Source of the DNA: Escherichia coli
GTDB lineage: Bacteria > Pseudomonadota > Gammaproteobacteria > Enterobacterales > Enterobacteriaceae
Assembly: GCF_044324875.1 (NCBI RefSeq)
Contig: NZ_CP172185.1
Reading direction: 5' to 3' (one strand)
DNA length: 64,000 nt
Positions within the stretch are counted from its first letter, which is position 1. Every line of letters begins with the position of its first letter. Of the stretch, positions 28,944 to 31,900 are shown in pieces. The position numbers were made by a program.

Positions 28944-31900
28944 TAACAAAAGCAATTTTCCCGGATGTCTGTATACAAAAACGCCGCAAAGTTTGAGCGA
29001 AGTCAATAAACTCTCTACCCATTCAGGGCAATATCTCTCTTGCAGGTGAATGCAACGTCAAGCGATGGGCGTTGCGCTCCATATTGTCTTACTTCCTTTT
29101 TTGAATTACTGCATAGCACAATTGATTCGTACGACGCCGACTTTGATGAGTCGGCTTTTTTTTGCCTGTTATTTATCAGCGTCTACCCTTTAAGAGTCCA
29201 CCCAATGACCGGAGGGAAATATGACGACACTTATTTATTTGCAAATTCCTGTCCCTGAACCGATTCCTGGCGATCCTGTTCCAGTGCCCGATCCGATCCC
29301 TCGTCCGCAACCCATGCCTGACCCACCCCCCGATGAAGAACCGATTAAATTGTCGCATCGTGAGCGTAGATCTGCGAGGATACGCGCCTGCTAACTTTGC
29401 GTCGATGACCACGAGAATAGATTGTGACCGCTTTTTCTACCCTGAATATTTTGCCTCCCGCCCAACTCACGAACCTTAATGAGTTGGGTTATTTAACCAT
29501 GACGCCGGTGCAGGCCGCCGCGCTTCCGGCGATCCTTGCCGGAAAAGATGTTCGCGTGCAGGCGAAAACCGGCAGCGGCAAAACGGCGGCTTTTGGCCTC
29601 GGCTTGTTACAGCAAATTGATGCGTCGCTATTTCAAACCCAGGCTTTAGTGCTGTGTCCTACGCGTGAACTGGCGGATCAGGTGGCAGGTGAATTGCGTC
29701 GGCTGGCGCGTTTTCTGCCAAATACCAAAATTTTGACGTTGTGCGGTGGTCAACCGTTCGGTATGCAGCGTGATTCGTTGCAACATGCGCCGCATATTAT
29801 CGTGGCAACGCCGGGCCGTTTGTTGGATCATCTGCAAAAAGGCACGGTATCACTGGATGCGTTGAATACGCTGGTGATGGATGAGGCCGACCGCATGCTG
29901 GATATGGGATTTAGCGATGCCATTGATGATGTCATCCGTTTTGCGCCAGCATCTCGACAGACGCTTCTGTTTTCGGCAACCTGGCCGGAAGCCATCGCCG
30001 CAATCAGCGGACGAGTGCAACGCGATCCTTTAGCGATTGAAATTGACTCAACAGATGCTCTGCCACCTATTGAACAACAATTTTATGAGACATCCAGCAA
30101 AGGCAAAATTCCGTTGTTGCAACGGTTATTAAGTTTGCATCAGCCATCCTCTTGCGTGGTGTTTTGCAATACCAAAAAAGATTGCCAGGCTGTCTGCGAC
30201 GCGCTGAATGAAGTAGGGCAAAGTGCATTGTCGTTACACGGCGATCTGGAGCAACGTGATCGCGATCAGACCCTGGTACGTTTTGCTAACGGTAGCGCCC
30301 GTGTACTGGTTGCGACTGATGTTGCTGCGCGAGGTCTGGATATTAAATCGCTTGAGCTGGTGGTGAACTTTGAGCTGGCGTGGGATCCTGAAGTTCATGT
30401 ACATCGCATCGGTCGTACAGCGCGTGCAGGAAATAGCGGTCTGGCGATCAGTTTCTGTGCCCCGGAAGAAGCACAGCGGGCCAATATCATTTCTGGCATG
30501 TTGCAGATAAAACTTAACTGGCAAACGCCGCCAGTTAATAGTTCCATTGTGCCGCTGGAAGCCGAAATGGCAACGTTATGTATCGATGGCGGGAAAAAAG
30601 CCAAAATGCGCCCGGGTGATGTATTAGGTGCGCTGACAGGAGATATCGGGCTTGATGGCGCAGATATTGGCAAAATCGCCGTGCATCCGGCGCATGTCTA
30701 TGTCGCGGTGCGTCAGGCTGTTGCTCATAAAGCATGGAAACAGTTACAGGGCGGGAAGATTAAAGGAAAAACGTGCCGGGTGCGGTTATTAAAATAATGA
30801 AATGTTGAATCGCAGGGTGCAAGAGTCAACATCTTCTTCGGGATTGCCGGATGCGACGCTGGCCGCGTCTTCTCCGGCCTCCATAAGAGTAGCCCGATAA
30901 GCTTGCGCATCGGGCGCTATCCGGGTTATTTCACTTCAACCACATTCAGTCGTAACTCATCCAACTGATTTTCATCTTCTTCAGGCTGCCAACCCGCCGG
31001 TTGTAGAGGGATCTCTTCGCGATCAAACGCCAGATCACCCCCGTTAACCACTTCAGAACCGTGGGTAATGCCTTTGAAATCGAACAGGTTGGTATCGCAC
31101 AGATGCGACGGCACCACATTCTGCATCGCGCTGAACATCGTCTCGATACGCCCCGGATAACGTTTATCCCAGTCACGCAACATGTCAGCAATCACCTGAC
31201 GTTGCAGGTTAGGCTGTGAACCGCACAGGTTGCACGGAATAATCGGGAACGCTTTTGCATCGGCAAAGCGCTGAATATCTTTCTCGCGGCAGTAGGCCAG
31301 AGGGCGAATCACGATATGTTTGCCATCATCGCTCATCAGTTTCGGAGGCATACCTTTCATCTTGCCGCCGTAGAACATATTTAAGAACAACGTTTGCAGG
31401 ATATCGTCACGATGGTGACCCAGCGCGATCTTCGTCGCTCCCAGTTCCGTTGCGGTACGATAAAGGATACCGCGACGAAGACGAGAACACAGTGAGCAAG
31501 TGGTTTTGCCCTCCGGAATCTTCTCTTTCACGATACCGTAAGTGTTCTCTTCAACAATCTTGTACTCAACGCCCAGCTTTTCAAGATACTCGGGCAGAAC
31601 GTGTTCCGGGAAGCCCGGTTGCTTTTGATCGAGGTTAACAGCCACCAGCGAAAAATTGATTGGCGCGCTTTGCTGCAAATTGCGCAGAATTTCCAGCATG
31701 GTATAGCTATCTTTACCCCCGGAGAGGCAAACCATGATGCGATCGCCTTCTTCAATCATATTGAAGTCAGCAATGGCTTCGCCCACGTTACGACGCAGAC
31801 GTTTTTGTAATTTGTTCAGGTTGTATTGTTCTTTCTTACTAATTTCTTGATTTTGCGACATTTAAAAGCGACTCAATTCGTTATATGGCATCAGAAGAGT

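Follow-up and report, generated by a model that had tools for sequence, protein, structure and literature searches.

The fnrS small RNA gene beneath spurious reading frames, and its FNR-type promoter, in an Escherichia coli genome

Background

Does the short interval between zntB and ynaL in an Escherichia coli genome encode a small protein, as a list of open reading frames (ORFs) would have it, or a small RNA (sRNA)? The question is raised by a stretch of 64,000 nucleotides (nt) from contig NZ_CP172185.1 of assembly GCF_044324875.1, which was analysed as a whole and is called the window below. A first-pass annotation, made from the sequence alone, had recognised the sRNA FnrS from position 29042 onwards, preceded by a putative binding site for the regulator FNR and hidden under an ORF of 72 amino acids (aa) that it took to be almost certainly no protein. 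Two mechanically listed ORFs overlie the locus:

29040..29258, plus strand: 72-aa ORF with a TTG start, judged spurious
29050..29193, plus strand: second ORF, 47 aa, ATG start, in a different frame

The answer reached here is that the locus is fnrS, and we put at about 98% the probability that this gene stands under a class II FNR-activated promoter and yields an Hfq-dependent sRNA acting on the ribosome-binding site (RBS) regions of its targets. FnrS, reportedly described in 2010, is already known, and the comparative data presented below confirm the published model rather than add a new result.

Results

Identity of the locus

The Rfam 15 models were run over the whole window (cmscan, gathering threshold), which returned three matches in total. 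One of them, to RF01796 ('frnS'), lies at 29042-29159 on the plus strand and scores 134.8 bits (E 4.4e-24), over double the gathering score (60) and far beyond chance. This covariance-model scan had been set beforehand as the decisive check, and the match is full-length, spanning positions 1-119 of the 119-position model without truncation. Four further T's past 29159 carry the gene to 29163, which makes it 122 nt long, exactly like its curated K-12 counterpart:

29042..29163, plus strand: fnrS, the 122-nt FnrS small RNA (RF01796, 134.8 bits; K-12 identity; conservation boundaries)

Alignment with the curated E. coli K-12 gene b4699 (NC_000913.3 1409129-1409250) gave identity at 122 of 122 positions. 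Over the whole zntB-ynaL intergenic region, the window and K-12 differ at 3 of 274 alignment columns, two of these substitutions lying 5' of the FNR box and one immediately before ynaL, so that the box, the spacer, the -10 region and the RNA show no difference. Because the RNA, the box and the promoter equal the curated K-12 locus, window positions 29042-29163 (plus strand) are fnrS, in the same allele as the K-12 reference, as the first-pass annotation had held. A 521-nt query around the locus was matched at 95% identity or more in 5392 of 5426 complete E. coli genomes.

Structure and conservation of the RNA

Are the boundaries and the fold of this RNA kept in related genomes? Relatives were collected in one scan of a species-level genome collection with a 22-base degenerate pattern of invariant stem-loop 1 positions, which yielded 120 loci from Escherichia, Citrobacter, Enterobacter, Klebsiella-like genera, Pantoea, Erwinia, Serratia, Yersinia, Dickeya, Pectobacterium, Edwardsiella, Photorhabdus, Arsenophonus and others. 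The conservation alignment comprised 113 sequences and covered +1..+135, with +1 at 29042; the counts in this section refer to it. Conservation begins sharply at +1 (G at 29042, then GCAGGTGAATGCAACG...) and collapses right after the terminal T-run. Between these limits the following elements were delineated:

29042..29050, plus strand: 5' end GCAGGUGAA (+1..+9), first target-pairing region, invariant
29048..29079, plus strand: stem-loop 1 (+7..+18 with +27..+38, Rfam), with a short outer helix of +1..+4 with +43..+46
29080..29102, plus strand: C/U-rich single-stranded linker CAUAUUGUCUUACUUCCUUUUUU (+39..+61), main seed and anti-Shine-Dalgarno region, with a U-rich tract
29103..29128, plus strand: stem-loop 2 (+62..+67 with +82..+87; +69..+71 with +75..+77), from Rfam and the minimum free energy (MFE) fold
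29136..29163, plus strand: Rho-independent terminator with an 8-bp stem, a 4-nt loop and a U8 tail, from the terminator scan

Both the MFE and the centroid fold of the 122 nt agree with the Rfam consensus structure; stem-loop 1 pairs +10..+18 with +27..+35 in the fold. In the alignment, 91.6% of its cells are paired and two of its pairs are changed on both sides, and the lower helix of stem-loop 2 is paired in 97.5% of cells, with G-U/A-U and double changes. The terminator hairpin (29136-29155, +95..+114) reads GCCGACTT-TGAT-GAGTCGGC and has eight pairs, five of them G-C, around a loop of four; it is directly followed by T8 at 29156-29163, and the T-run is invariant. The ending in a GC hairpin plus T8 seen at first pass is thus borne out. 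Compensatory changes across species were found in four of the eight terminator pairs, one of which is A-U in 54 sequences, G-C in 46 and G-U in 10.

When the Rfam structure is taken as a whole, standard pairs occupy 91.1% of cells, versus 31-40% with the 3' partners slid by 1-3 columns. Nine pairs are changed on both sides, versus 4.0 ± 0.9 in column shuffles, none of 500 of which reached nine. This covariation supports the three-hairpin structure of the RNA, whose U8 tail is likely the Hfq-binding 3' end. The linker is unpaired in the Rfam structure except for the weak outer helix at +43..+46, and it is open in the centroid fold. Its part +43..+55 (UUGUCUUACUUCC) is at least 89% conserved, and the U-tract after +55 varies in length. 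Both +43..+55 and the invariant +1..+9 lie outside the retrieval pattern.

The FNR box and the promoter

Another important question is how this RNA is transcribed. Two upstream elements were recognised:

28993..29006, plus strand: FNR binding site TTGAGCGAAGTCAA (sequence, K-12 identity, conservation and published ChIP-seq, that is, chromatin immunoprecipitation with sequencing)
29029..29034, plus strand: -10 element CAATAT (-13..-8), from conservation in 119 distinct upstream regions

The box agrees with TTGAT-N4-ATCAA at eight of ten positions, the deviations being G for T at half-site position 5 and G for A at the mirror position. Its centre falls between 28999 and 29000, i.e., at -42.5, in keeping with the class II position, about 42 bp upstream, assigned to it in the first-pass annotation. 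For K-12, Myers et al. 2013 (PMC3688515) report an FNR ChIP-seq peak at fnrS and place its top-scoring site at -42.5; for FNR-dependent fnrS expression they refer to two 2010 papers.

The position of the box was compared in 123 Enterobacterales sequences (the 120 retrieved loci, the window and two E. coli records) by setting +1 of the relatives 11 nt upstream of the retrieval pattern, scanning 80 nt upstream and taking the best match to TTGAT-N4-ATCAA. A box with no more than two mismatches is centred exactly at -42.5 in 119 of them. The half-sites drift at this fixed position: TTGAG...GTCAA in E. coli, TTGAG...ATCAA in many genera and CTGAT...ATCAA in Erwinia and Pantoea. The Erwiniaceae box (-49..-36) reads CTGAT-N4-(A/G)TCAA versus TTGAG-N4-GTCAA, so that one half-site position is lost and another gained around the same centre; copies of this type include loci L005, L007, L018, L029, L033, L043 and L044 of Erwinia and Pantoea.

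In an ungapped stack of the 119 distinct upstream regions, only two islands are conserved, the FNR half-sites and the -10 element. The first comprises T-48 (100%), G-47 (99%), A-46 (94%), T-39, C-38 and A-37 (99%) and A-36 (100%), with flanks conserved at 30-70%; the second comprises G-14, C-13, A-12 and T-8, each at 99%. Positions -35..-15 are conserved at 30-70%, and the invariant stretch resumes at +1. There is no recognisable -35 hexamer. A sigma-70 consensus scan gave no stand-alone promoter in 28700-29600, a result that is uninformative for an activator-dependent promoter and consistent with one; the -10 element was located by conservation because this generic scan found nothing. A distance of 29.5 bp separates the box centre from the beginning of the CAATAT hexamer, a spacing that would match a canonical -41.5 class II promoter with its hexamer at -12..-7, with an extra base inserted between the -10 element and the start.

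Could FnrS instead be processed from the 3' untranslated region of zntB, with the box a chance match? The stop codon of zntB (28946), a gene of the same orientation, precedes fnrS by 95 nt, and the terminator scan predicted no other terminator between that stop and the FnrS terminator (28947-29163). The adjacency is also conserved: in nearly all of those among the 120 loci that have enough flank, zntB is the immediate upstream neighbour in the same orientation and stops 80-140 nt short of +1. The box pattern taken alone is not above chance in the window. However, the box and the -10 element are the sole conserved islands upstream, and the box keeps its distance from +1 in nearly all copies. 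In six Rahnella/Rouxiella-type loci (L037, L046, L082, L087, L111 and L112), zntB is convergent, ending about 30 nt past the terminator, and so cannot be the source of the RNA; the box nevertheless stays at -42.5. Moreover, an FNR ChIP-seq peak has been published for the fnrS site (PMC3688515), and FnrS is reported to be FNR-dependent and anaerobically induced (PMC3688515, PMC11572966). We therefore regard an origin by processing as very improbable and retain an FNR-activated promoter belonging to fnrS itself. The FnrS terminator may also end zntB transcripts, and in the Rahnella/Rouxiella-type loci the hairpin would act in both directions.

Pairing with targets

What does the RNA act on? FnrS is FNR-controlled, is made on the switch to anaerobiosis and is one of the Hfq-dependent sRNAs (PMC11572966). 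The same study reports that iscR is repressed about 14-fold through FnrS pairing at its RBS, with in vivo support, that the FnrS-iscR duplex forms in an electrophoretic mobility shift assay and is improved by Hfq, and that iscR is derepressed 13-fold in a delta-fnrS strain during anaerobic growth (PMC11572966). Eleven operons of the indirect FNR regulon (gpmA, cydDC, sodB, adhP, yobA and others) have been explained by FnrS (PMC3688515), and pairing of its 5' end with azuC is proven by compensatory mutations, while pairing with glpD is predicted (PMC8915982).

To these reports we added duplex predictions between the linker (+39..+61) and the region -60..+30 of four reported K-12 targets. Duplexes computed with the whole RNA ignored intramolecular structure and were meaninglessly long; only the result for the single-stranded linker was used. 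The energies were -13.5 kcal/mol for sodB, -18.3 for iscR, -13.7 for gpmA and -10.5 for maeA, each of the four duplexes lying across the start codon at -16..+5. Those of sodB, iscR and gpmA each beat all 39 background starts (mean -8.6, minimum -12.7), which were the first ATGs of long ORFs in the window. These predictions agree with occlusion of the RBS by the conserved seed; they are not proof of it, because the seed is generically anti-Shine-Dalgarno and the background starts are approximate.

Reading frames over fnrS

The question remains whether either of the two ORFs could be a gene. If the 72-aa ORF were truly protein-coding, the match to an RNA family would be incidental or secondary. 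The ORF is present with its TTG start, and the identical product has been deposited as a 'hypothetical protein' in some E. coli genomes, for example CBG34283.1 of E. coli 042. However, only the last base of the TTG (29040-29042) falls within the transcript, the start lying 2 nt before +1, and the stop (29256-29258) lies 95 nt past the terminated 3' end of FnrS. Among the 120 relatives, the codon at this position is a start codon in 16, being TCG in 60 and CCG in 37, and the first stop in the frame comes after anything from 14 to more than 87 codons. The length of +9..+94 differs from that of the window in 51 of the 113 aligned sequences, and in 42 of these 113 the difference is not a multiple of three. 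Codon periodicity is absent, third positions in this frame being less variable than the others (p = 0.94), and conservation does not extend past the T-run, which lies midway through the ORF. A Pfam search with the products of both ORFs found no family at E up to 1, and neither ORF is annotated in curated K-12 or in the examined records of the Prokaryotic Genome Annotation Pipeline (PGAP). The 72-aa ORF was rejected as a gene on these grounds (boundaries outside the transcript, start and frame lost in relatives, no periodicity, no Pfam family), and its being protein-coding has a practically negligible probability, the lowest of all readings considered. Older pipelines deposited both ORF products in several submissions of E. 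coli and Shigella genomes, and the 72-aa product also sits in a 90%-identity cluster with the 327-aa ZntB as representative, which looks like a clustering artefact.

A subtler proposal is that FnrS has a dual function, the AUG at +9 (29050) opening a short hydrophobic peptide that is translated besides the base-pairing role. Such a peptide would have 47 aa in E. coli, by read-through, and 31-32 aa in Citrobacter and others, where it would end in the terminator loop. The ATG is present in 117 of the 120 relatives, a frame of 31-32 codons in 42 of them, and AGGUGA is located just 5' of the AUG. Variability in this frame climbs mildly towards codon position 3 (0.047/0.082/0.114 over +43..+94), and the 47-aa product (AWZ68831.1, EGW72541.1) as well as a 42-aa version have been deposited as hypothetical proteins.

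Several observations speak against translation. The periodicity is not significant (p = 0.07 for +43..+94 and 0.13-0.17 for other regions, in nine tests without correction), and the 113 sequences encode 88 distinct peptides. Past about residue 17, the frame runs into one of two unrelated continuations (...FLNYCIAQLIRTTPT or ...FFELLHSTIDSYDA), set by the length of the U-tract, and changes of 1-2 nt in this tract switch between them even in close relatives, such as Enterobacter cloacae versus E. asburiae. In three lineages the frame halts after three codons, and in E. coli it meets no stop before the 3' end of the RNA. AGGUGA ends 1 nt before the AUG, well under the usual Shine-Dalgarno-to-start spacing of 5-9 nt, and two bases of the AUG itself, U10 and G11, take part in the pairing of stem-loop 1. 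The ATG is accounted for without translation, being kept because it lies within the invariant 5' pairing region. The product has no Pfam match, and papers on dual-function RNAs treat FnrS as a base-pairing regulator only. The permutation test, together with the count of indels and the comparison of the peptides, led us to drop this frame as a coding sequence; a dual function of FnrS is accordingly highly improbable, if less remote than its processing from zntB.

We conclude that both the 72-aa and the 47-aa ORFs are non-coding frames over an RNA gene, as the first-pass annotation had maintained for the former. Its statement that the RNA is hidden under an ORF is fair for those public annotations that list hypothetical proteins there; in the K-12 and PGAP records examined the ORF is absent. 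Standard PGAP RefSeq records of E. coli that were examined carry no feature at fnrS, micC or mcaS.

Genomic context

For gene placement, 25 kb of the window was mapped to a collinear genome. The order zntB, fnrS, ynaL, dbpA is the same as in K-12 MG1655, where fnrS is annotated as the non-coding RNA b4699. Among the relatives, ynaL and dbpA lie 3' of fnrS in the core Enterobacteriaceae only. The neighbouring features observed in the window are as follows:

29221..29394, plus strand: ynaL, a proline-rich small protein of 57 aa
18687..19439, minus strand: fnr
25569..25664, minus strand: McaS/IsrA sRNA (RF00115, 111.6 bits, gathering score 42, full length)
33956..34076, plus strand: MicC sRNA (RF00121, 126.1 bits, gathering score 90, full length)

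The ynaL gene begins 58 nt after the 3' end of FnrS and has a strong GGAGGG Shine-Dalgarno sequence; no promoter was predicted between the FnrS 3' end and ynaL. Its product is identical to K-12 YnaL, which has been validated by epitope tagging (PMC6001520). With fnr 9.6 kb from fnrS, the regulator and the regulated sRNA share the window. A near-perfect FNR box, TTGATATTTGTCAA, occurs at 19459-19472, 20 nt upstream of the fnr start codon, and is probably the known fnr autoregulatory site. A third TTGA-N6-TCAA match, TTGACACGTTTCAA at 54972-54985, lies inside a 289-aa ORF (54858-55727) and is probably a chance occurrence.

The Rac prophage, inserted after ttcA in K-12 (1411899-1434958), is absent from the window between ttcA and the ompN-like porin gene (about 31900-33900), where ttcA is followed directly by uspF, the porin gene and micC. 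Consequently, fnrS and micC are 4.9 kb apart in the window versus about 28 kb in K-12. The uninterrupted arrangement is also consistent with a search of 5426 complete E. coli genomes, in 2429 of which the 25-kb query is matched over 80% or more of its length in one place.

Discussion

How firmly do these results establish an FNR-activated sRNA gene? None of them contradicts that reading, but some points are weak. On its own, TTGA-N6-TCAA shows no enrichment in the window, with 3 matches versus 1.53 expected and 24 of 100 shuffles reaching 3; for this reason, the argument for the box rests on its position, its conservation and the published ChIP-seq, so that the box noted at first pass stands by place and conservation, and the pattern by itself is statistically unremarkable. 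The fold energy of the RNA is only modestly better than that of shuffles (z = -1.67), and since the retrieval pattern spans +12..+42, the conservation of stem-loop 1 is partly imposed by the sampling. Among the target predictions, the maeA duplex is not above background (rank 9 of 39), a C/U-rich linker tends to pair with Shine-Dalgarno sequences generically, and the background starts, being approximate, may under-represent true RBSs.

FNR occupancy, anaerobic induction, Hfq dependence and target repression have been reported in the literature on the identical K-12 allele. Because the box, the promoter and the RNA are identical to those of K-12, it is safe to expect that fnrS of the host strain would behave as it does there. 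Under this model, in the absence of oxygen a [4Fe-4S] FNR dimer would bind TTGAGCGAAGTCAA at -42.5, overlap the missing -35 element and recruit RNA polymerase to the weak CAATAT -10 element. The transcript, running from G29042 to the terminator formed by hairpin and U8 (29136-29163), would be 122 nt long and fold into three hairpins. Its 5' end (GCAGGUGAA) and linker (+39..+61) would pair with the RBS regions of sodB, gpmA, iscR, azuC and other mRNAs that are unneeded anaerobically; such pairing would block translation initiation and lower mRNA levels, and the FNR regulon would thereby gain negative post-transcriptional control.

Two residual readings share a small probability, slightly above that given to a general dual function. 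One is a lineage-restricted peptide from the +9 AUG in Citrobacter, some Enterobacter and others, hydrophobic (MQRQAMGVALHIVLLPFLNYCIAQLIRTTPT), 31-32 codons long and ending inside the terminator loop; the other, separate from it, is FNR-controlled read-through into ynaL and dbpA, which, if true, would put the validated small protein YnaL partly under FNR control. Both are unlikely, and neither is backed by the data gathered here. What the recognition of fnrS offers is mainly of value for annotation and little as discovery, given that the gene is already in Rfam and in the K-12 annotation: it removes false protein calls of 72, 47 and 42 aa and places the locus in the FNR regulon.

Comparison with known systems

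The closest known system is FnrS of E. coli K-12 (b4699, RF01796), which has the same RNA, FNR box, -10 element and zntB-fnrS-ynaL-dbpA neighbourhood and is the same gene in another strain; the two loci differ by the three intergenic substitutions, outside the RNA and promoter, and by Rac, present after ttcA only in K-12. Among class II FNR promoters, the box is at -41.5 in narK, nrfA and caiF and at -42.5 in ydhY (PMC3688515). The fnrS promoter resembles them in that a TTGA-N6-TCAA-type repeat overlaps the -35 region and a weak -10 element is present without a recognisable -35 hexamer. In contrast to the commonest arrangement at -41.5, its box is centred at -42.5, the distance from the -10 element to the start being one base longer.

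Hfq-dependent sRNAs that extend the regulon of their regulator include RyhB (Fur) and OxyS (OxyR). FnrS shares with RyhB, OxyS, MicC and McaS the features of a primary transcript of about 100 nt from a promoter under a single global regulator, a conserved single-stranded seed for target RBSs and a Rho-independent terminator with a U-tail. It differs from all four in that its sequence is unrelated to theirs, it pairs through two regions, namely its 5' end and its linker, and it serves the response to anaerobiosis.

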